A stretch of 64,000 nt of DNA, taken from contig JACZJN010000162.1 in assembly GCA_014860565.1 (NCBI GenBank), positions 14,739 through 78,738 on the forward strand, written 5' to 3'. The notes beneath the pieces were generated by a model, which was given only the letters and a program-made list of their open reading frames with translations, was not told where the DNA came from and searched no databases. The position numbers and the translations under genes were made by a program. Positions 14,280 to 50,571 of the stretch are shown here, piece after piece; the stretch's first letter is position 1, and each line of letters begins with the position of its first letter. This DNA comes from Bacteroidota bacterium (GTDB lineage Bacteria; Bacteroidota; Ignavibacteria; SZUA-365).

Positions 14280-15062
14280 ATGGTATCCACTTCCTCGATA
14301 GTAAAACGCTGTGCGTCGCTGCTTGTCCTTCTGACCGTGCTGTTCGCAACCGATGGCAGTGCGCAGCGTCTGCAGAACTATCACGGATTCCAGCAAACCT
14401 ATCCCGGCGCAATAGCGATCGGTGTTCAGACTGGCCCGAATTTCAATTTTGCCGCCAGTGGCCCTTACGCAGATTGCGACTGTACTTTTGATGGCGGAAG
14501 CGGTATCGGATACCATGCGGGACTACATTTGGATATCCTCGTAAACCATTGGTTTGGTATACGTTTGCAGGGTTTATATGAAGACCATTCCACCGTATAC
14601 GTCAAGGATTTCGCCGGTAGCACCTTTGGTGATGACGGTGCGCCCGCTGCCGTCAACATCCAGCGAAGGGCGGAGGTTGGAATCCGATACCTAAGCACGT
14701 CTTTCATGCTCACCTGGGTCACCGGCCCGCAAGGGCTCTACCTTCTCTCCGGAGCCTCCTTTGGCTTTTTTCTTGATGGAACCCTCAAGGACGAGGAGTA
14801 TATCACCACGCCGGGCTATGTGTATCCTGGAACAAGTACAAGCCGCACGGTCTTTGCAGACGAGGGACTTGACGCGGCGCAGGATCTTCCGATGCGGGGT
14901 GGAATTGTCATCGGCGTCGGGTACGATCTTCCTCTTGCAAGAGGAATTTCCCTGGGTCCTGAGTTGCAGTTCGATTATCCACTTACCGCAGTGGTTGACG
15001 GCAATGCCGATTGGAATATCCCTTCACTCCGGGCCTCGGTTGCTTTGCGATTCGGACTTTGA
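14280..15062 (+). CDS. Small outer-membrane β-barrel protein, paralog B, with a CDCTF motif.
   Basis: 260 aa with a signal peptide. It is collinear with paralog A (QGLYLLSGASFGFFLDGTLKDEEYITTPG versus KGLYLAAGPEFGLSLLDNIEETETITTPG). Confidence 0.6.
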   Translation: MVSTSSIVKRCASLLVLLTVLFATDGSAQRLQNYHGFQQTYPGAIAIGVQTGPNFNFAASGPYADCDCTFDGGSGIGYHAGLHLDILVNHWFGIRLQGLYEDHSTVYVKDFAGSTFGDDGAPAAVNIQRRAEVGIRYLSTSFMLTWVTGPQGLYLLSGASFGFFLDGTLKDEEYITTPGYVYPGTSTSRTVFADEGLDAAQDLPMRGGIVIGVGYDLPLARGISLGPELQFDYPLTAVVDGNADWNIPSLRASVALRFGL

Positions 15063-40746: not shown

Positions 40747-41397
40747 TTATTCATAAATGTCTTTCAGTAATTCCTGAAGCTGGAGGCGTCCGCGGCTGAT
40801 GCGGGACTTCACCGTTCCGATGGGCATACCGACGATTTCGGCGATTTCTTCGTAACTCAATTCCTGCACATCGCGCAGAATAACCGCTTCACGGAACACA
40901 TCCGGCAACTCGAGCAGGGCCTCTTGTATGCGGTCATAGACAATACTGCTGTCAGCGCTGCGATCGGGTAACGGATCATTATCGATCAAGGGAATCGAAT
41001 ACTCTTCATCATCGTTTTTTTTACGATCGATCGGCGTCAGATACTTGCGATGGCCTCTTCGCAATTCACTTTTCGCGAGATTGCCGGCGATAGTATAGAT
41101 CCAAGTCGAAACGCGTGCGATTGTCCGGTACAGATGCTTTTTCCGGTACACTCGGATGAAGGTGTCCTGGAGAATATCCGCGGCGTCTTCGTTGTTGCCG
41201 GTGAAGCGGAATATATAGTTCATCAGGGGATTTTGATATCGCTCCACCAGGATGTCGAACGCAAGCCGTACATCGCGTTGAAACAGCAGCATGAGTTCTT
41301 CATCGGACAGCGAATCGAGGGTGACACGATCCAGCTTTTTCACCTCGATAAGCTTTTCTACCCTCTGTTCCAGGGAAAGTTCCTGGGTTTGATCCAT
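40747..41397 (-). CDS. RNA polymerase ECF-type sigma-70 factor.
   Basis: Region 2 (DILQDTFIRVYRK, TWIYTIAGNLA) and region 4 (LSYEEIAEIVGMPIGTVKSRISRGR) are both present. Confidence 0.85.
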   Translation of the reverse strand: MDQTQELSLEQRVEKLIEVKKLDRVTLDSLSDEELMLLFQRDVRLAFDILVERYQNPLMNYIFRFTGNNEDAADILQDTFIRVYRKKHLYRTIARVSTWIYTIAGNLAKSELRRGHRKYLTPIDRKKNDDEEYSIPLIDNDPLPDRSADSSIVYDRIQEALLELPDVFREAVILRDVQELSYEEIAEIVGMPIGTVKSRISRGRLQLQELLKDIYE

Positions 41398-43944: not shown

Positions 43945-46131
43945 TCAAAGCGCAACAACTTCCTTCCTGTTTAGTGCTTCAAGAATGCGGTACGTGGCGC
44001 GGGAAGTCGCCAGGATGCTCTCGAGTGGGATCACGGGATTGGATTTTTTTCGAATGGCATTCATGAATGCGACCACTTCGTTGTGGTGGCCTTTGTCTCC
44101 GTCGCCTTTCTTGCGGTTCTGTTTTCCATCACGGGCGAGGGTGAGGGTCTGGAAGTTGTCCATGACCGCCGTCGCGTTGCCGCAGCTCATGGTGATGCGC
44201 TCTTTCGGGATGGACGAATCACCGTTCGCGACATACGTGATGATGCCGATCGAGCCGTCGGTCATCCTCATCGTGATGTTTACGCTGTCGAAATTTGTCA
44301 CTGCATCATTCTCTGAAGCGATGGATTCGGCGCTGATCCGTTGCGGGAGGGCTCCGGTAAGGAACTGAATTGTATCGACGAAATGGCATACTTCACCAAT
44401 GATGCGACCGCCTCCGTCCGTAGGATGCTGTGTCCAATGATCCTTTGGGAGGAAACCCGCATTTACGTAGTAATGCACGACAGCGGGTTCACGATATTCA
44501 GCAAAAAAGGTCTGCATATCCATGACAAGGGGAGCAAAGCGGCGATTGTATCCGACCATAAGCTGTACTTTCCCGGTCAATTCCGGATGGGTCAACAGCA
44601 GAGATTCAATGGGTGCCAGCTCTTCTTCATTCAAGGCGAGTGGCTTTTCAACAAACACATGTTTTCCATGGCGCAGAGCTTCATACGCAAAGGGTGCGTG
44701 TTGGCCGTGCCGCGTTGCTATAAACACCGTCCCAATAACCTCGTCAGAAAGCACATCCGCGGGATTTGTACTTGAACGGCGGAAACCAAATTTCCCGCGC
44801 ATGTCCGCGCCGGTCAGCCCGCTGCGATTACACACGCATTCAAGTGTGACATCATCCATGGCCTTAAGGTGAGGAAGAAGGTAGCCGGAGGCGAAGCTGC
44901 CTGCGCCAACGAACCCGATCGAGAGAGAACTCCTCCTGGGAGAAATCACCGGCGCAGCCGGGATGGATGCATCCTGCGCAAGGGATTTCAAAGCTTCGGC
45001 ATCCATATCATCATAGGCCAGAACAATGCCGACGTAGGGCTCAGTCTTTTCCCCTTCGATCAGAGCGTACGCTTCGAGAGCCTCGTCGACACCGAAGCGA
45101 TGCGTTGTCAGCACATCGGTATTGATGCGTCCCTGCGCAAGCAGCTGCAGATAGGCCTGCATGTTGCGATTCTCTGTCCATCGCACGTATCCGATGGGGT
45201 AATCAAGGCCCTCTTCCTCATAATGCTTGTCGTAGCGACCGGGTCCGTAGGAACGGGAAATGCGTATGTCGATTTCCTTCATGTAGTATGGACCACGCGG
45301 AATGTTCATGGAGGCAGCGCCAACAATGACCACCCGGCCACGTTCGCGTGTAATTTTTCCCGCCAGATCAATCGGATCGTTGCTCGAAGTCCCGGCGGTG
45401 ATGATCACGGCGTCAGCTCCGTAACCCCCGCTCATGGACTGTACGACGCTCACAACAGGATCGTCATGCCGGTGCAGCGCGGCGTCGGCACCGGAACGGA
45501 TGGCCATTTGCACAGCAAGAGGATCGAGGTCCACGCCGATGACCTTGCAGCCGTTGGCCTTGAGAAACTGTACTGTAAATTGGCCCAGAAGTCCCAAACC
45601 GATGACGACGATGGTTTCCCCCAGCAGCGGTTCAGTCTGGCGAACGCCCTGCAGGGCAATGGATGCGATGGTCGTGTAGGCGGCGGACTCGGTGGATACG
45701 CCATCGGGAATGCGCGCCACGAGATTGCGTGGGACGGCAACCAGATCGCTATGGAACGCATACTCCGCTCCGGCGCAGGCAACACGGTCTCCGATCTCCA
45801 GGTCGTGAACACTTTCCTCAACTGCCACCACGACCCCAGCGGTACTGTACCCGAGCCCGGCGTACGAATCGAGTTTCCCCATGATGCGCTTGTAGGTGCG
45901 AGTCAGGCCGTTTTTCTTCACTTCATCGATCACTTTCCGAACTTCCTCGGGCTGACTTTTTGCACGCTGCAGCAGGGAAGATTTGCGGGAATCAACCGAC
46001 GTTTTCTCTGTCCCCGCGCTGATCACGGAGAAATAATTTTTCACGAGCACCATGCCGCTGCCGATGGCCGGAGTGGGGACATCGGATACTTTCATGGCGC
46101 CGGTTTTGATGTGTTGTGCGATCTGTTTCAT
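43945..46131 (-). CDS. Bi-domain oxidoreductase: an N-terminal zinc-type alcohol dehydrogenase (MDR) domain fused to a C-terminal Gfo/Idh/MocA NAD(P)-binding domain.
   Basis: An MDR Rossmann motif VIGLGLLGQ and, in the second half, a Gfo/Idh/MocA-type IGFVGAGSFASGY. Total length is about 730 aa. Confidence 0.75.
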   Translation of the reverse strand: MKQIAQHIKTGAMKVSDVPTPAIGSGMVLVKNYFSVISAGTEKTSVDSRKSSLLQRAKSQPEEVRKVIDEVKKNGLTRTYKRIMGKLDSYAGLGYSTAGVVVAVEESVHDLEIGDRVACAGAEYAFHSDLVAVPRNLVARIPDGVSTESAAYTTIASIALQGVRQTEPLLGETIVVIGLGLLGQFTVQFLKANGCKVIGVDLDPLAVQMAIRSGADAALHRHDDPVVSVVQSMSGGYGADAVIITAGTSSNDPIDLAGKITRERGRVVIVGAASMNIPRGPYYMKEIDIRISRSYGPGRYDKHYEEEGLDYPIGYVRWTENRNMQAYLQLLAQGRINTDVLTTHRFGVDEALEAYALIEGEKTEPYVGIVLAYDDMDAEALKSLAQDASIPAAPVISPRRSSLSIGFVGAGSFASGYLLPHLKAMDDVTLECVCNRSGLTGADMRGKFGFRRSSTNPADVLSDEVIGTVFIATRHGQHAPFAYEALRHGKHVFVEKPLALNEEELAPIESLLLTHPELTGKVQLMVGYNRRFAPLVMDMQTFFAEYREPAVVHYYVNAGFLPKDHWTQHPTDGGGRIIGEVCHFVDTIQFLTGALPQRISAESIASENDAVTNFDSVNITMRMTDGSIGIITYVANGDSSIPKERITMSCGNATAVMDNFQTLTLARDGKQNRKKGDGDKGHHNEVVAFMNAIRKKSNPVIPLESILATSRATYRILEALNRKEVVAL

Positions 46132-46172
46132 TCCCAAAAAGTAAGCTTTTACCCCGTTTTTTCCTATACAAT

Positions 46173-46194
46173 AACGGCTCCCGCAGGAGCCGTT
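46173..46194 (-). terminator. Hairpin terminator after the Spy-like gene.
   Basis: A perfect 9-bp stem AACGGCTCC/GGAGCCGTT with a 4-nt loop, followed on the minus strand by AUUGUAU. Confidence 0.45.
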
Positions 46195-46215
46195 GAATGC
46201 GATTTGGCCAGGATA

Positions 46216-46683
46216 TCAGCGACGCGGTGGCCGCCCGGCATTTTCGAGCAGGCGTCTGACTTCCTGACGGAAATGCTGTTCAAAAAGGACGATTTTTGCT
46301 ATTTGCTGCATGCTGAGAAAATCGTTCAGAGAAAGAAGAAACGTGTGTTTTTCATGGGCAATTTGTGCATCGATTTCGTCCAGATGCACAAGCTGATTTC
46401 GCAGAGCACTGTCGTCTGCCTTCTCCTCGATCAGTCCATGCAATCCCTTGATAATGCCTTTCCGCTTTTCAAGGAGCGCTCGCTCGCCCTCACGGAATTC
46501 CTTCTCGCGAACGGAGAGACGGAGCGCCTGCTCCTCATTGAGATCCAGCGCATCGATCATTTTAATGCGCCTCAACTGCTCGAGTCTCTCACGTCCTTTA
46601 CCCTCGGGCAGAGGATCGTCTTGCGCGTATGCGGCAGTAAATAGAAAAATGGTCATCGATAGCAGGAGCAGTGTGGTTTTCAT
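46216..46683 (-). CDS. Periplasmic Spy/CpxP-like LTxxQ-motif protein.
   Basis: Signal peptide. Helical, with LNEEQALRL and LSMQQIAKI motifs. It is the third gene of the ECF σ / anti-σ cluster. Confidence 0.5.
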   Translation of the reverse strand: MKTTLLLLSMTIFLFTAAYAQDDPLPEGKGRERLEQLRRIKMIDALDLNEEQALRLSVREKEFREGERALLEKRKGIIKGLHGLIEEKADDSALRNQLVHLDEIDAQIAHEKHTFLLSLNDFLSMQQIAKIVLFEQHFRQEVRRLLENAGRPPRR

Positions 46684-46690
46684 GGTCGCC

Positions 46691-47389
46691 TCACAGAATC
46701 CTTATCTTTTGTTGTTCAAGTTCCCGGACAATGCTTTCTGCTTCCGCATCGCTGAGTTTTTCAAGTACATCTTCTTGCGATAAGTAATTGAGGCTCGCGG
46801 AGACGACCGCAGAATAGGGAACATCGTCGAGTAATGTCAGATCAATTGCGGTATTCAGACTTGATGCATCGCTGGCGGAGGACGCTTCCTCGGAGATGAG
46901 TTCTCTATTGGCTGATTGCTCAAAAATCATGATATCGTCCAGCATGGGCGTAGTGGGGGATAGGTCAGCGATCCCAAGCAGATCGTTTTCATTGAACAAT
47001 CCAGAGAACAGTGCCTCCTGAGAATCCAACGTTTCCACCGATGGGAAAAGGACTATCGCGGCAATAATCAGAAGGACCGCTGTAGAAAACAAGGGGACAA
47101 AAAGAGCTGGACGGCCGATGTGGCGCAGTACAGGCCTGTAACCCCTTGCGTTTCGATCGATGCCAGCGTTTACGCCAACAAGAAAACGGCCGGGATCGGA
47201 AATACCTTCGCCAGGAATATCGCGAGTGAGAATACCGGAAAAGAACTCTCGTAGCTCACGTTCCTCAGCAGCACATGAAGAAGAGGTTGACAGATGCTCG
47301 CGCATCATACGGCTCTCCTCCGCATCGAGTTTCCCGTCGACGTAATCGGGCAGACGCCCGTCGCAGATTTTACATTCGCGTTTTGACAT
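46691..47389 (-). CDS. Anti-sigma factor with an N-terminal zinc finger (zf-HC2-like) and one TM.
   Basis: MSKRECKICDGRLPDYVDGKL...H...C matches the zf-HC2 pattern. TM ALFVPLFSTAVLLIIAAIVLF. The gene overlaps the end of the sigma gene by 20 nt. Confidence 0.65.
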   Translation of the reverse strand: MSKRECKICDGRLPDYVDGKLDAEESRMMREHLSTSSSCAAEERELREFFSGILTRDIPGEGISDPGRFLVGVNAGIDRNARGYRPVLRHIGRPALFVPLFSTAVLLIIAAIVLFPSVETLDSQEALFSGLFNENDLLGIADLSPTTPMLDDIMIFEQSANRELISEEASSASDASSLNTAIDLTLLDDVPYSAVVSASLNYLSQEDVLEKLSDAEAESIVRELEQQKIRIL

Positions 47390-47918
47390 ATTCTTCAATT
47401 TTCTTGGTGGCGTGATGATAATTTGCCTTGAGTCCACCAACCGAGGTCTTCAGTATTGTGGCAATCTCGTCGTACGAAAGTTCCTCATAATAACGGAGAA
47501 TGAACACCGCTTTCTGTTTTTCTGGTAGATGATCGACCCCGTCCCGCACGAGACGTCGCAGTTCTTCCTGTTCGAAGCTCACGGATGGAGAGGGAGAGGT
47601 GTCCTGAATCTGATGATGATCGTCGCTCATACTGAAAAACGTGCGCAAACGCCCTTTCCGTATATGGTTGAGACTGAGATTGACAGCGATGCGGTAAAGC
47701 CAGGTGAAAACCTGTGCGTCGCCGCGAAACTCGGCCACTTTCTCGTACGCCTTGATAAATACTTCCTGCGCGATATCGCGCGCGTCGTCCTGGTCGGCAA
47801 CCATTCGATGCACGACCTGGAACACGCGGTCCTGGTATTTTCGCACCAACAGGTTGAATGCGGCGCGATCTCCCTGTCGGCAGGCGTCGAGTATGTCCGT
47901 TTCGCGCGGTGGTTGCAT
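47370..47918 (-). CDS. RNA polymerase ECF-type sigma-70 factor.
   Basis: Region 2 (DIAQEVFIKAYEK, TWLYRIAVNLS) and region 4 (LSYDEIATILKTSVGGLKANYHHATKK). Confidence 0.85.
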   Translation of the reverse strand: MQPPRETDILDACRQGDRAAFNLLVRKYQDRVFQVVHRMVADQDDARDIAQEVFIKAYEKVAEFRGDAQVFTWLYRIAVNLSLNHIRKGRLRTFFSMSDDHHQIQDTSPSPSVSFEQEELRRLVRDGVDHLPEKQKAVFILRYYEELSYDEIATILKTSVGGLKANYHHATKKIEEYVKTRM

Positions 47919-47986
47919 GGATGTCGAAAAGTACGAACTGCATGATTCTGTTCCGATATGTGATTGATCACGGAACATCGGTGCTA

Positions 47987-48307
47987 TTAGAAACGTGCTC
48001 CACCGCGACGGTTTGGCATGTTGCCACCTTTTCCGCGAAACTCTTCTCTCGCCGAGAGGAATTCCTCCAACGTCACATAGCCGTCGCTGTCCTTGTCCAT
48101 ACGCTGGAAGCGGTCTTCCGGGGCGCCTCTGCGTGAGGGCATATCGCGGAATTCGTCCCAGGAAATCCGTCCGTCCCCATCCTTATCCATCCGTATGAAG
48201 AATGCTTGCGGGTCGCCTTCCGGTGGACGATCCGGCTCGGATGACGAGCACGATGCCGCAAGTACTGTAACGGGCAGTAAGAGCATGAAAAGGAAAGGAG
48301 GGCGCAT
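47987..48307 (-). CDS. EF-hand calcium-binding lipoprotein.
   Basis: Lipobox LAASCSS. Two canonical EF-hand loops, DKDGDGRISWDEF and DKDSDGYVTLEEF. Confidence 0.7.
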   Translation of the reverse strand: MRPPFLFMLLLPVTVLAASCSSSEPDRPPEGDPQAFFIRMDKDGDGRISWDEFRDMPSRRGAPEDRFQRMDKDSDGYVTLEEFLSAREEFRGKGGNMPNRRGGARF

Positions 48308-48380
48308 AGCGGTTGTTTCCTGAAATGAGCATGAACGAACACTCGGATTTGACACGAGGATCGCCTGCTGGTTTAATTCG

Positions 48381-48398
48381 AGGAAGGAAGGAAGGAAG
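48381..48398. repeat. (GGAA)4 microsatellite in the divergent intergenic region.
   Basis: Direct reading: aggaaggaaggaaggaag. Confidence 0.9.
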
Positions 48399-48531
48399 TT
48401 CCAACTGCCGGTACAGACGCCGTCGTTGTGCTCCAGTATTGCTCAAGCAGGCTGAATTGCATATTATACCTTCTTCCAAGCGCACAAATGTGAGCGCAGT
48501 GCATCAAATCTTGATCTGGTAAGCCGAGTTC

Positions 48532-50571
48532 ATGAACAACAATCGTATTCTCGTTACATCGGCGCTTCCGTATGCGAACGGCGCCATTCATTTTGGCCAT
48601 CTCGCGGGCGCGTACTTGCCTGCTGACATGTTTGTCCGCTATCAGCGGCTCATGAAAAGAGACGTGCTTTTCATTTGCGGATCGGACGAGCACGGGGTCA
48701 GCATTCTGATTTCGGCACGCAAGGAAGGTGTCGAACCACAGGTCATTATCGATCGCTACCACAATCTCAACCGGACAGCCTTCGAACGGATCGGCATGAG
48801 TTTCGACAATTATTCGCGAACCTCTCTGCCCGTGCATCATGAAACCGCGCGTGAATGGTTTGTGGAATTCCGCGACAAAGGTGTTCTGACGCAGAGCGTT
48901 GAGAAGCAGTTGTATGATCCCGAAGCGCGGATGTTTTTACCGGACCGCTTCGTCATCGGCACATGCCCGCACTGCGGATATGAGCGCGCATACGGGGATC
49001 AGTGTGAAAATTGCAGTAAATACTACGATCAGACCGAGCTGCTCAATCCGAAGAGCCTCCTCAGCGATGCCGTCCCTGAAATTCGCGAAGCACGACACTG
49101 GCATTTTCCGCTCGGGGACTATCAACAGCGGCTGGAGGAATACATTGAAAAGAATGCCGGTCGCTGGAAGGAGAACGTGCTTCAACAAGTGCGCTCCTGG
49201 TTGAAGAGCGGGTTGAGTGACCGTCCTATCTCACGCGATATGGACTGGGGTATCAAAGTACCTGGCGAGGAAGATGAGGGAAAAGTGATTTACGTATGGT
49301 TCGAAGCCGTGCTTGGATACATCTCTTCGAGCAAGGAATGGGCCGCTCGAATCGGCGAACCGGAGAAGTGGAAAGAGTACTGGTGCAGTGAGGACACGCG
49401 CTATGTGCCCTTCATCGGCAAGGATAATATCGTCTTCCATTGCCTGATGTTTCCCGCGATGCTCATGGAGAAGGGCGGTTACGTGCTCCCGGATAACGTT
49501 CCCGCAAACGAGTTTCTGAATCTTGAGGGAAAGAAATTCAGCAAGAGTATGAACTGGTCGATCGAGCTCAATGAGTTTCTCGACACATACCCCGCTGATC
49601 CGCTCCGCTACACCCTCGCGATGAACATGCCCGAAACGCGTGACAGCGACTTTTTCTGGAAGGATTTTCAGGCGAGGAACAACAATGAACTTGCGGACAT
49701 CCTCGGAAACTTCGTGAACCGAACGGTGCACTTCGCGCATAAGAATTTCGGCGGAAAGGTGCCGGCGGCTGCGGAGCTCGATGAGGAAGACCGCCTCTTT
49801 CTTGAACAATTTTCGACGATCGCGGATCAGGTCGGGGACTGCTATGAGCGCTACCGCTTCAGGGATGCCGTGACGGCCACCATGAATCTTGCCCGTGCCG
49901 CAAACAAATACTTCAACGACAGGGAACCGTGGAAGTCCATCAAAACAGACGCTCAAAAATGCGCAAATACAGTCAACTGTAGTCTGCAGGCGGTGTACGC
50001 TCTCTCCATTCTCATTGAACCGGTGCTTCCGTTTACCGCGCAGAAGCTGCGGCAACTGCTTAGCGTGAGCGATCCCAAGGCCTTGGCCTGGGACGCTGTC
50101 AAGAGCTGGCGTCTGCCGGATGGACATCCCATCGGAGAACGTGTCATCCTCTTTGATAAAATCGAGGACGCGACGATAGACGATGAAACGGCGAAGCTGG
50201 GAAAACTTACCGAGCTGCCGGAGCGTCACTTCCCGCCACTCAAGGAACAGATCACGATCGACGACTTCATGAAAATTGATCTGAGGGTCGGGAAAATACT
50301 TGAAGCGGAGAATGTGCCCAAGTCGAACAAGCTGCTCAAACTGAAAGTGGATATCGGTTCGGAGCATCGGCAGCTCGTTGCCGGGATTGCTGCGCAGTAT
50401 ACGCCAGAGGATCTGATTGGCAAGCACATTGTCATTGTTGCGAACCTGAAACCTGCCAAATTATTCGGCATAGAATCGCAGGGAATGATATTGGCGGCAT
50501 CAACTGAAGAGGATGGCCCTGTTGTGCTTACTCCCGCCGTGTTGATCCCCGAAGGAGCCATCGTCAAGTGA
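48532..50571 (+). CDS. metG: Methionine--tRNA ligase with a C-terminal EMAP-like tRNA-binding domain.
   Basis: The HIGH motif region reads ALPYANGAIHFGHL. Zn-knuckle CPHCGYERAYGDQCENC. KMSKS-type loop KFSKSMNW. Confidence 0.95.
   Translation: MNNNRILVTSALPYANGAIHFGHLAGAYLPADMFVRYQRLMKRDVLFICGSDEHGVSILISARKEGVEPQVIIDRYHNLNRTAFERIGMSFDNYSRTSLPVHHETAREWFVEFRDKGVLTQSVEKQLYDPEARMFLPDRFVIGTCPHCGYERAYGDQCENCSKYYDQTELLNPKSLLSDAVPEIREARHWHFPLGDYQQRLEEYIEKNAGRWKENVLQQVRSWLKSGLSDRPISRDMDWGIKVPGEEDEGKVIYVWFEAVLGYISSSKEWAARIGEPEKWKEYWCSEDTRYVPFIGKDNIVFHCLMFPAMLMEKGGYVLPDNVPANEFLNLEGKKFSKSMNWSIELNEFLDTYPADPLRYTLAMNMPETRDSDFFWKDFQARNNNELADILGNFVNRTVHFAHKNFGGKVPAAAELDEEDRLFLEQFSTIADQVGDCYERYRFRDAVTATMNLARAANKYFNDREPWKSIKTDAQKCANTVNCSLQAVYALSILIEPVLPFTAQKLRQLLSVSDPKALAWDAVKSWRLPDGHPIGERVILFDKIEDATIDDETAKLGKLTELPERHFPPLKEQITIDDFMKIDLRVGKILEAENVPKSNKLLKLKVDIGSEHRQLVAGIAAQYTPEDLIGKHIVIVANLKPAKLFGIESQGMILAASTEEDGPVVLTPAVLIPEGAIVK

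Follow-up and report, generated by a model that had tools for sequence, protein, structure and literature searches.

An EF-hand lipoprotein gene lies between a conserved ECF-type promoter motif and an ECF sigma factor gene in a Bacteroidota lineage

This study examined a gene cluster on the minus strand of a 64,000-nt stretch of DNA (positions 14,739 to 78,738 of contig JACZJN010000162.1; hereafter the window) from a Bacteroidota bacterium of the class Ignavibacteria, lineage SZUA-365. In this cluster, a gene for a putative calcium-binding EF-hand lipoprotein is inserted downstream of a conserved promoter motif and directly ahead of the genes for an extracytoplasmic function (ECF) sigma factor, a zf-HC2 anti-sigma factor, and a periplasmic protein of the Spy/CpxP type. 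All features that a sequence-only reading of this DNA had listed were found where it had placed them, in the same order on the minus strand. The promoter motif and a terminator-like hairpin behind the fourth gene are conserved among relatives, the EF-hand gene is patchily present in them, and the architecture recurs in Alphaproteobacteria. We favor, with some reservation, the reading that the four genes form an operon running from a promoter designated P1 (48376..48348) to the hairpin (46194..46173), in which the EF-hand protein would bind periplasmic Ca2+ and couple Ca2+ status to the stress response.

The position of the EF-hand gene relative to P1 is central to this reading. P1 (48348..48376, minus strand) is a putative ECF-type, autoregulated promoter consisting of the -35 element TTAAACC (48376..48370), a 15-nt spacer, and the -10 region TGTCAAA (48354..48348). 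The regions upstream of sigma were compared among relatives located via the sigma factor, the fourth protein, and the EF-hand protein, and the motif TTAAAC(C)-N15/16-GTCnAA was present in 11 of 11 orthologous loci (designated below by L numbers), down to 52% sigma identity. At six loci without the EF-hand gene (L005-L009 and L036), P1 ends 22-86 nt upstream of the sigma ATG, and at L034, also without the gene, it ends 220 nt upstream of that ATG; in the window, L004, L032, and L038, which carry the gene, it ends 27-44 nt upstream of the EF-hand ATG (40 nt in the window). The 64-kb window contains a single match to TTAAACC-N15-TGTCAAA, with 0.03 expected. No other P1-like site that might indicate a regulon was found in the window, where the strict pattern gave one hit and a relaxed pattern one hit against 0.64 expected. 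The AAC core and the TGTCAAA -10 region presumably resemble RpoE-type promoters and the sigma-E consensus TCAAA; this would suit the RpoE-like sigma factor, and we take it as a lead only. Since ECF sigma factors autoregulate as a general rule, P1 would be recognized by the sigma factor of the window.

The limits of the unit agree with this promoter assignment. The EF-hand stop codon is followed after 68 nt by the sigma start, and the terminator scan showed no terminator-like site between the two genes; hairpin analysis likewise yielded no terminator belonging to the EF-hand gene. A hairpin in the spacer was considered as a terminator or structured RNA and rejected (consensus -5 kcal/mol, no covariation, no U tract), and a search of 45900-48700 against Rfam gave no match. 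Past the fourth gene lies an intrinsic-terminator-like hairpin (46173..46194, minus strand) with a 9-bp stem and a 4-nt loop, AACGGCTCC-TGCG-GGAGCCGTT, which is kept 3' of the orthologous gene in L004, L005, L032, and L034 with pairing-preserving changes on both arms. In those four loci the hairpin is followed by TTTTCG, whereas the T tract of the window is weaker and interrupted (TTATTGT), and the simple terminator scan missed the hairpin for this reason. The earlier proposal that this hairpin terminates the unit is thus strengthened by its conservation with compensatory changes, but the T run remains weak in the window itself. Because P1 lies upstream of the EF-hand gene and no terminator precedes sigma, the EF-hand gene can be placed as the first cistron, in agreement with the sequence-only reading, which had put it at the head of the unit; a single transcript from P1 through all four genes would be the simplest reading.

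The first gene (48307..47987, minus strand), characterized by Pfam, alignment, and a structural model, encodes 106 aa plus a stop codon, and not 107 aa as first read, but its two canonical EF-hand loops were confirmed. Pfam EF-hand_1 matched in two stretches (1.4e-13) and EF-hand_7 matched with 1e-11, both past the cut-offs. The loops, DKDGDGRISWDE and DKDSDGYVTLEE, both follow the canonical D-x-D-x-D-G ... E pattern, with D at position 1, D/N/S at positions 3 and 5, G at position 6, a hydrophobic residue at position 8, E at position 12, and flanking helices, as in PF00036/PF13499. The N-terminus, MRPPFLFMLLLPVTVLAAS-C20, has a charged n-region and a hydrophobic core ahead of the lipobox Cys. 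Bacterial lipoprotein signals have a positive n-region, a hydrophobic core, and the sequence [LIVMFWSTAG](2)-[LIVMFYSTAGCQ]-[AGS]-C, and the lipobox read by eye, MR...VLAAS-C20, conforms to this PROSITE PS51257-type pattern. In the family alignment, Cys20 and the subsequent SS(S/G)(E/D) are retained in 9 of 9 full-length members, and both loops and the WDEF/ERF motifs are also kept. The protein is therefore predicted to be exported by Sec/Lsp and lipidated.

Behind the signal peptide and lipobox come a short linker, a single EF-hand pair (residues ~31-92), and a disordered Gly/Arg-rich tail. An AlphaFold2 model gave pLDDT 75-90 for the core residues 31-92 with disordered ends, and in this model two helix-loop-helix units appear to pack as a single lobe. 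All of the top 50 Foldseek matches were EF-hand proteins (centrin, calmodulin lobes, polcalcin), with TM ~0.6 against single-lobe targets and weak E-values (>=0.013). Ca2+ binding is thus expected of this protein from its loops.

The EF-hand gene is under purifying selection, with dN of 0.32-0.41 and, dS being saturated, dN/dS of ~0.12-0.15 where computable. Its GC content of 0.573 against 0.534 for the window is no anomaly, and horizontal acquisition judged by composition was not supported. A C-terminal aromatic residue (GARF, GGGF, GGRY) was considered as a PDZ-protease signal and dismissed, as it is not retained in the wider lipoprotein family. A word-index protein search showed just four clusters of this family, and an exhaustive HMMER search raised the count to at least seven clusters at 50% identity, at least six of them further ones. 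The further clusters share the lipobox Cys, SS(S/G)(E/D), ...SWDE(F/Y)..., ...ERF..D..DGY...EF, and the Gly/Arg tail, and one of them has a member from an 'Ignavibacteria bacterium' metagenome-assembled genome. As lipobox EF-hand proteins outside this family exist as well, the earlier statement that bacterial EF-hand lipoproteins are rare is doubtful.

The second gene (47370..47918, minus strand) encodes an ECF (group 4) sigma factor of 182 aa that is RpoE/AlgU-like. Pfam identified Sigma70_r2 (7e-17) and r4_2 (5e-14), and TIGR02937 (sigma70-ECF) scored 110.6 bits against a cut-off of 42.9; the protein contains regions sigma-2 and sigma-4 alone and has the size of ECF sigma factors (~180-200 aa). 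Its best NCBIfam model is RpoE at 136 bits, which is under that model's cut-off, and among solved structures it is closest to AlgU (6in7_B, 4e-32) and E. coli sigma-E (1or7, 6e-27). The open reading frame (ORF) alone is readable from 47978, and comparison with orthologues places the true start probably at ATG 47918 (MQPPRETD). The longer ORF was rejected: its 20-codon extension is conserved as DNA and not as protein, its frame being broken by a 2-nt indel in L005.

The third gene (46691..47389, minus strand) encodes a single-pass anti-sigma factor of 232 aa, and it overlaps sigma by 20 nt (47389..47370), exactly as first noted. The protein has an N-terminal zf-HC2 domain (Pfam, 5.5e-9), a transmembrane segment at ~residues 94-116, and, C-terminally, an acidic periplasmic domain that ends in a conserved helix; a PDB search yielded no sequence relative. 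The zf-HC2 assignment of the earlier reading holds at the level of the Pfam domain, but the canonical HxxxCxxC is lacking: the alignment gives C6-x2-C9 ... H31-x3-S35-x2-C38 in the window clade, and the canonical motif in L006-L009. The H-x3-C-x2-C signature with an upstream H/C ligand that typifies zinc-binding anti-sigma (ZAS) proteins is accordingly not present in the window, and zinc binding through C6, C9, H31, and C38 is possible.

The fourth gene (46216..46683, minus strand) encodes a protein of 155 aa that the family profile and model place in the Spy/CpxP/ZraP/CnrX (LTXXQ/Metal_resist) superfamily. It is all-helical and secreted, with a Sec signal ending AYA|QDD. Among 22 family members, PF13801 was matched by 9 (best E 1e-5) and PF07813 (LTXXQ) by 8, and the family profile matched the solved LTxxQ protein STV (5ihf) with E=1.2e-3. 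The AlphaFold2 model (pLDDT 83) has helices at 29-46, 50-86, 91-121, and 125-149, and the best folds found by Foldseek were STV, CnrXs, and CpxP (TM 0.6-0.67 on target). A secreted protein of about this size with long bent helices and two LTxxQ-like motifs is what the superfamily (~100-150 aa) comprises. The Spy/CpxP-like assignment of the earlier reading thus stands through the family profile and fold, but not by a literal LTxxQ, as the two motifs read LNEEQ and LSMQQ. Within the family only R, E, L, Q, A, and F occur as invariant residues; because no His, Cys, or Met is invariant, a CnrX-type metal site with conserved His/Glu/Met ligands is unlikely.

Weak matches to the Spy-like profile (E 1e-4 to 1e-8) were also observed beside distant sigma homologues in Flavobacterium, Lutibacter, and other Bacteroidota, at sigma +2 in L017, L018, L020, L010, and L022 and at -1 in L025. 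The anti-sigma factors at these loci are not zf-HC2 proteins. The pairing of sigma and Spy-like genes therefore reaches well past the window clade.

The sigma/anti-sigma/Spy-like triad is a known type. In ECF281, the gene at +1 is described as that of a zinc-finger anti-sigma factor, and the gene at +2 as that of a 'heavy-metal resistance' protein of PF13801 (PMC7826278); matched by description, the window has the same gene order with its zf-HC2 anti-sigma factor at +1, and its +2 protein, without a direct Pfam match, reaches PF13801 only through its family. The main text of this ECF classification 2.0 mentions neither EF-hand nor calcium (PMC7826278). In Phocaeicola vulgatus, cirY/cirZ and the co-transcribed spy were the most induced genes during colitis (PMC13114119). 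This ECF pair of a Bacteroidota species, followed directly by its Spy-like gene and strongly induced under envelope damage, is similar to the present triad by description rather than by sequence, but it belongs to the class Bacteroidia and has no EF-hand gene described. CnrYXH of Cupriavidus metallidurans likewise combines an ECF sigma factor, a membrane anti-sigma factor, and a periplasmic helical protein of the same fold superfamily; it differs in its order (cnrY, cnrX, cnrH), in its CnrY-type instead of zf-HC2 anti-sigma factor, in the absence of an EF-hand partner, and in that CnrX senses Ni/Co via His/Met ligands without a conserved counterpart in the window family. The E. coli sigma-E system resembles the window in its RpoE-like sigma factor and in the CpxP/Spy fold of the +2 protein, but RseB/RseC have no equivalent here, the anti-sigma factor is ZAS-like and not RseA-like, and CpxP and Spy are encoded outside the rpoE operon.

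Based on these comparisons, the last three genes would constitute an ordinary ECF281-type envelope-stress module. The single-pass anti-sigma factor would sequester the RpoE-like sigma factor at the membrane until an envelope signal frees it, and the Spy/CpxP-like protein in the periplasm may be an output of the chaperone type, may modulate the anti-sigma factor, or may do both. The freed sigma factor would then re-activate P1 and raise the production of all four proteins; because its gene lies between P1 and sigma, the EF-hand protein would be made whenever sigma is active. Anchored by lipid, this protein would most likely bind periplasmic Ca2+ and either buffer or retain it at the membrane or report its status to the anti-sigma complex. 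It would be an induced Ca2+-binding output, perhaps feeding back on the anti-sigma factor or the Spy-like sensor, as reported for CaBP-SigV of Caulobacter. The feedback (input) role taken alone is tentative, and we lean against it more than toward it.

The closest precedent is Caulobacter vibrioides CaBP, a Sec-exported protein with three EF-hands that is encoded directly upstream of the ECF sigma factor SigV (PMC13171946). The cabp promoter determined by 5'-RACE is ECF-like (GGAAA-N13-CGTTCA), regulation between cabp and sigV is reciprocal and responds to Ca2+ and pH, and phenotypes were seen (PMC13171946). The window, L004, L032, and L038 share with this system an exported EF-hand protein gene immediately upstream of, and co-oriented with, an ECF sigma gene, and an ECF-type promoter, putative in the window clade, lies ahead of the pair. 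Unlike the window protein, a lipoprotein with one EF-hand pair, CaBP is soluble (SPI signal), has three EF-hands, and comes from an Alphaproteobacterium; orthology of the two systems was assessed by description only, and related alphaproteobacterial sigma factors are just 26-29% identical to that of the window. The Caulobacter paper mentions no downstream anti-sigma or PF13801 partner (PMC13171946). Its authors stated that the membrane link between CaBP and SigV is not known and is perhaps an anti-sigma factor (PMC13171946). Beyond Caulobacter, no other paper in the library searched links EF-hand proteins with an ECF sigma factor in this way. EfhP of Pseudomonas aeruginosa and lanmodulin are similar as exported EF-hand proteins that report or bind metal outside the cytoplasm, and the part of the EfhP source covered here (PMC11559002) does not describe its gene beside an ECF sigma gene.

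Contexts sampled around distant EF-hand matches revealed the same arrangement elsewhere. The order EF-hand, ECF sigma, small single-pass protein, PF13801 protein was found in four metagenomic alphaproteobacterial lineages (L044, L045, L046, and L047/L048) with differing flanks. The module is also present on plasmid CP104104.1 of Phaeobacter sp. G2, where PGAP annotates it as 'EF-hand domain-containing protein / RNA polymerase sigma factor / hypothetical protein / periplasmic heavy metal sensor', and the Neorhizobium plasmid pNCHU2750c carries it as well. No adjacent sigma gene was seen near the distant EF-hand matches of L040, L043, and L050, and L039 and L041 end at contig ends. Homologous sigma/anti-sigma/PF13801 triads without an EF-hand gene occur in Caballeronia, Burkholderia arboris, and Ensifer, so the EF-hand gene is an accessory at -1 there too. 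At L044, L045, L047, and L049, the EF-hand gene is preceded by an ECF-like motif, GCGACGGAwwy-N11-12-CCGTw, and at L054 and L056, which have no EF-hand gene, this motif precedes sigma. The rule of the window clade, by which the EF-hand gene stands between the motif and sigma, is thus the same at these alphaproteobacterial loci on the sequence evidence. Together with the four related genomes and the Caulobacter circuit (PMC13171946), this recurrence among unrelated flanks indicates that the linkage of EF-hand and ECF genes first noted in the window is not accidental.

Several observations weigh against a Ca2+-coupled operon of four genes, and they concern the proteins, the recurrence, the transcript, and the distribution of the EF-hand gene. 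Some orthologues have K, R, or A at position 6 of EF loop 1, and the fourth protein itself had no Pfam match at E<=0.1 and no NCBIfam match. The alphaproteobacterial EF-hand proteins differ in carrying 3-4 hands, an ordinary signal peptide, and a His-rich tail, and the +1 proteins there are not zf-HC2 proteins. Given these +1 proteins and the 26-29% sigma identity, the recurrence is one of architecture and not of orthology. A comparison of the window Spy-like family with the alphaproteobacterial PF13801 partners by hhalign gave E=0.064, and direct homology between them was not demonstrable.

With regard to the transcript, the 68-nt spacer contains a conserved non-coding element of 59 nt (47919..47977, minus strand), defined by DNA alignment of relatives, with the inverted repeat TGTTCCG (47977..47971) / CGGAACA (47955..47949) followed by CATGCAGTTCGTACTTTTCGACATCC; the conserved part behind the repeat reads CATGC.GTTCGTAC.TTTC. 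Close relatives share this element with or without the EF-hand gene, and it may be a leader element, a second (basal) promoter, or a protein-binding site. The genes could therefore be adjacent but separately transcribed, P1 serving the EF-hand gene only and a second promoter in the element serving the other three, and the GGAAC ... CGTAC within it is similar to ECF -35/-10 cores. In Caulobacter, the sigV promoter lies inside cabp and both genes are reported as monocistronic (PMC13171946); within the EF-hand ORF of the window clade, no conserved promoter-like motif was seen, the conserved element being in the spacer. We nevertheless consider separate transcription unlikely, although it deserves some weight, because relatives without the EF-hand gene have P1 itself as the conserved motif ahead of sigma, out to 52% sigma identity, whereas the 59-nt element is limited to the closest clade. 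The distance from GGAAC to CGT is 14 nt, shorter than the spacing of P1 and than typical ECF spacing. Even with a second promoter, read-through from P1 would be expected since no terminator follows the EF-hand gene.

Concerning distribution, the EF-hand gene is present in the window, L032 (=L001), L004, and L038. L005, L034, and L036 share the flanks and lack the gene, and L006-L009 lack it as well; in all seven loci without it the sigma/anti-sigma/Spy-like triad is intact. The linkage, whose conservation the earlier reading had proposed to check, is kept in four related genomes, but relatives without the gene exist, and synteny with the closest relatives is uninformative by itself because they share the entire neighborhood (metG on one side; an ADH-GFO fusion, uppP, PPIase, and holA on the other). 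A neighbor-joining tree of five concatenated proteins paired the carrier L032 with the non-carrier L034 and the window with L004, every split being recovered in 500 of 500 bootstraps. Since the carriers are never monophyletic, the EF-hand gene was lost at least once or gained twice. It is accessory and dispensable for the module.

These data raise the possibility that the EF-hand gene is a neutral passenger in the leader of a sigma operon, expressed but without a sensing or stress role. Such a passenger could be lost without disturbing the module, as at L034, and would be missing, as it is, from most related triads. We find this quite improbable, because the coding sequence is under purifying selection, the lipoprotein family is conserved over at least seven clusters at 50% identity, and the same pairing is found with non-orthologous alphaproteobacterial sigma factors exactly at -1 and downstream of a conserved promoter motif. 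The phenotypes and reciprocal regulation in Caulobacter (PMC13171946) also argue against it.

At L034 (3540-3700), ~190 nt separate P1 from the sigma leader and contain a 31-codon ORF with a signal-peptide-like start (MHKPSLFLLILTG...). This ORF may be a remnant of a lost EF-hand gene, and DNA alignment did not demonstrate homology. L005 (CAZWNO010000084.1) is labelled 'uncultured Chromatiales bacterium', yet it is syntenic and its sigma factor is 70% identical to that of the window clade, and this contig is probably mis-binned or mislabelled.

Alternatively, the module could handle or sense a metal other than Ca2+, either a heavy metal as in CnrYXH and ZraP or a lanthanide as with lanmodulin, the EF-hand protein being the binder. 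The +2 partner does belong to a superfamily annotated 'periplasmic heavy metal sensor', and the EF-hand and PF13801 proteins of L044, L045, L046, and L047 have His-rich tails or inserts (e.g., HDYDDHDDDDHSGHYGHR, HGERHGERHG), which hint at an extra metal-binding role in the alphaproteobacterial modules that is absent in the window clade. The NCBIfam lanmodulin model (NF053806) matched the window protein weakly, with E=0.015 and 15.3 bits against a cut-off of 135. Lanmodulin has four EF loops with Pro at position 2, whereas the window protein has two loops of the canonical Ca2+ pattern with Lys at this position. With no His-rich tails in the window clade and no invariant His, Cys, or Met for a CnrX-type site in its Spy-like family, a metal other than Ca2+ appears very unlikely to us.

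The Ca2+-coupled operon remains our preferred reading, and the region upstream of P1, toward the divergent metG, bears on how its expression might vary. A (GGAA)4.5/(TTCC) microsatellite, detected by Tandem Repeats Finder (TRF), occupies 48381..48398, 4 nt upstream of the P1 -35 element and between the two divergent promoters. The other of these is a candidate sigma-70-type metG promoter (48439..48467, plus strand; TTGCTC-N17-TATTAT), which was read by eye and not listed by the terminator/promoter scan; L004, L005, L032, and L034 retain the two hexamers with their 17-nt spacing, which suggests that this lineage uses classical -35/-10 promoters and not Bacteroidia-type -33/-7 motifs. The tract is real and improbable by chance, being the sole tetranucleotide array of at least 4 copies in 64 kb (0.005 expected from shuffles), and it lies close to P1, so that slipped-strand changes in (GGAA)n might switch the expression of the unit or of metG, as had been suggested. 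The presence of the tract was confirmed, but slippage control is without support because the tract is missing from every relative compared and lies outside the -35/-10 spacer of either promoter. Its length was also identical in an independent Logan assembly, and 4.5 copies are short for an efficient contingency locus, so we attach next to no credence to such a switch. In the metG/EF-hand intergenic region of L032 (3120-3270), a ~47-nt tandem duplication (GGAATTGCT.CCGGCAGTCCGAGTGTTGGGTTTCGC) was observed upstream of P1.

On the other side of the unit, directly past the terminator, lies a gene for a 728-aa fusion of ADH_zinc_N (zinc-type alcohol dehydrogenase) and Gfo/Idh/MocA oxidoreductase (43945-46131, minus strand), which in relatives is followed by uppP (BacA), PPIase, and holA. 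A second ECF sigma gene (216 aa; 40747-41397, minus strand) is found on the same strand ~6.5 kb downstream. The next gene, of at least 255 aa and without a Pfam match, possibly encodes its anti-sigma factor, and this arrangement is conserved in L001, L032, L034, and L036.

The sensing of calcium outside the cytoplasm is poorly understood in bacteria, and very few signalling proteins have been tied to it. The type of the triad was already known, and for an EF-hand gene at -1 there is one experimental precedent, from another phylum. What this study adds is a Bacteroidota lipoprotein version, the rule that the EF-hand gene stands between the promoter and sigma, and the company of anti-sigma-like and PF13801 proteins in Alphaproteobacteria. 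The instance in the window is itself a modest one, an accessory gene lost from close relatives.

The comparison supplies candidates for the missing link of Caulobacter, namely a membrane anti-sigma factor and a Spy/CnrX-like periplasmic protein, which are proposed because both accompany the EF-hand gene in the four alphaproteobacterial lineages and on the Phaeobacter and Neorhizobium plasmids, and, as different parts, here. With the EF-hand gene placed between a conserved ECF-type promoter and sigma, its expression would be expected to depend on sigma, and feedback would be possible. In a wider sense, an EF-hand protein, a Spy/CnrX-like protein, and a membrane anti-sigma factor might make up a recurrent Ca2+-gated ECF input device, put together on at least two occasions, once among Alphaproteobacteria and once in the Bacteroidota lineage studied here, with positive feedback arising each time from insertion of the EF-hand gene between the autoregulated promoter and sigma; we regard this generalization as speculative and rather doubtful. 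If it were true, the window would represent an independent, lipid-anchored version of a general extracytoplasmic calcium sensing. If confirmed, many ECF modules annotated with a 'periplasmic heavy metal sensor' would perhaps be sensors of divalent cations or of envelope integrity. The recurrence of the pairing in a distant phylum speaks for calcium as something that switches of this kind take in or act upon, as an input or an output.

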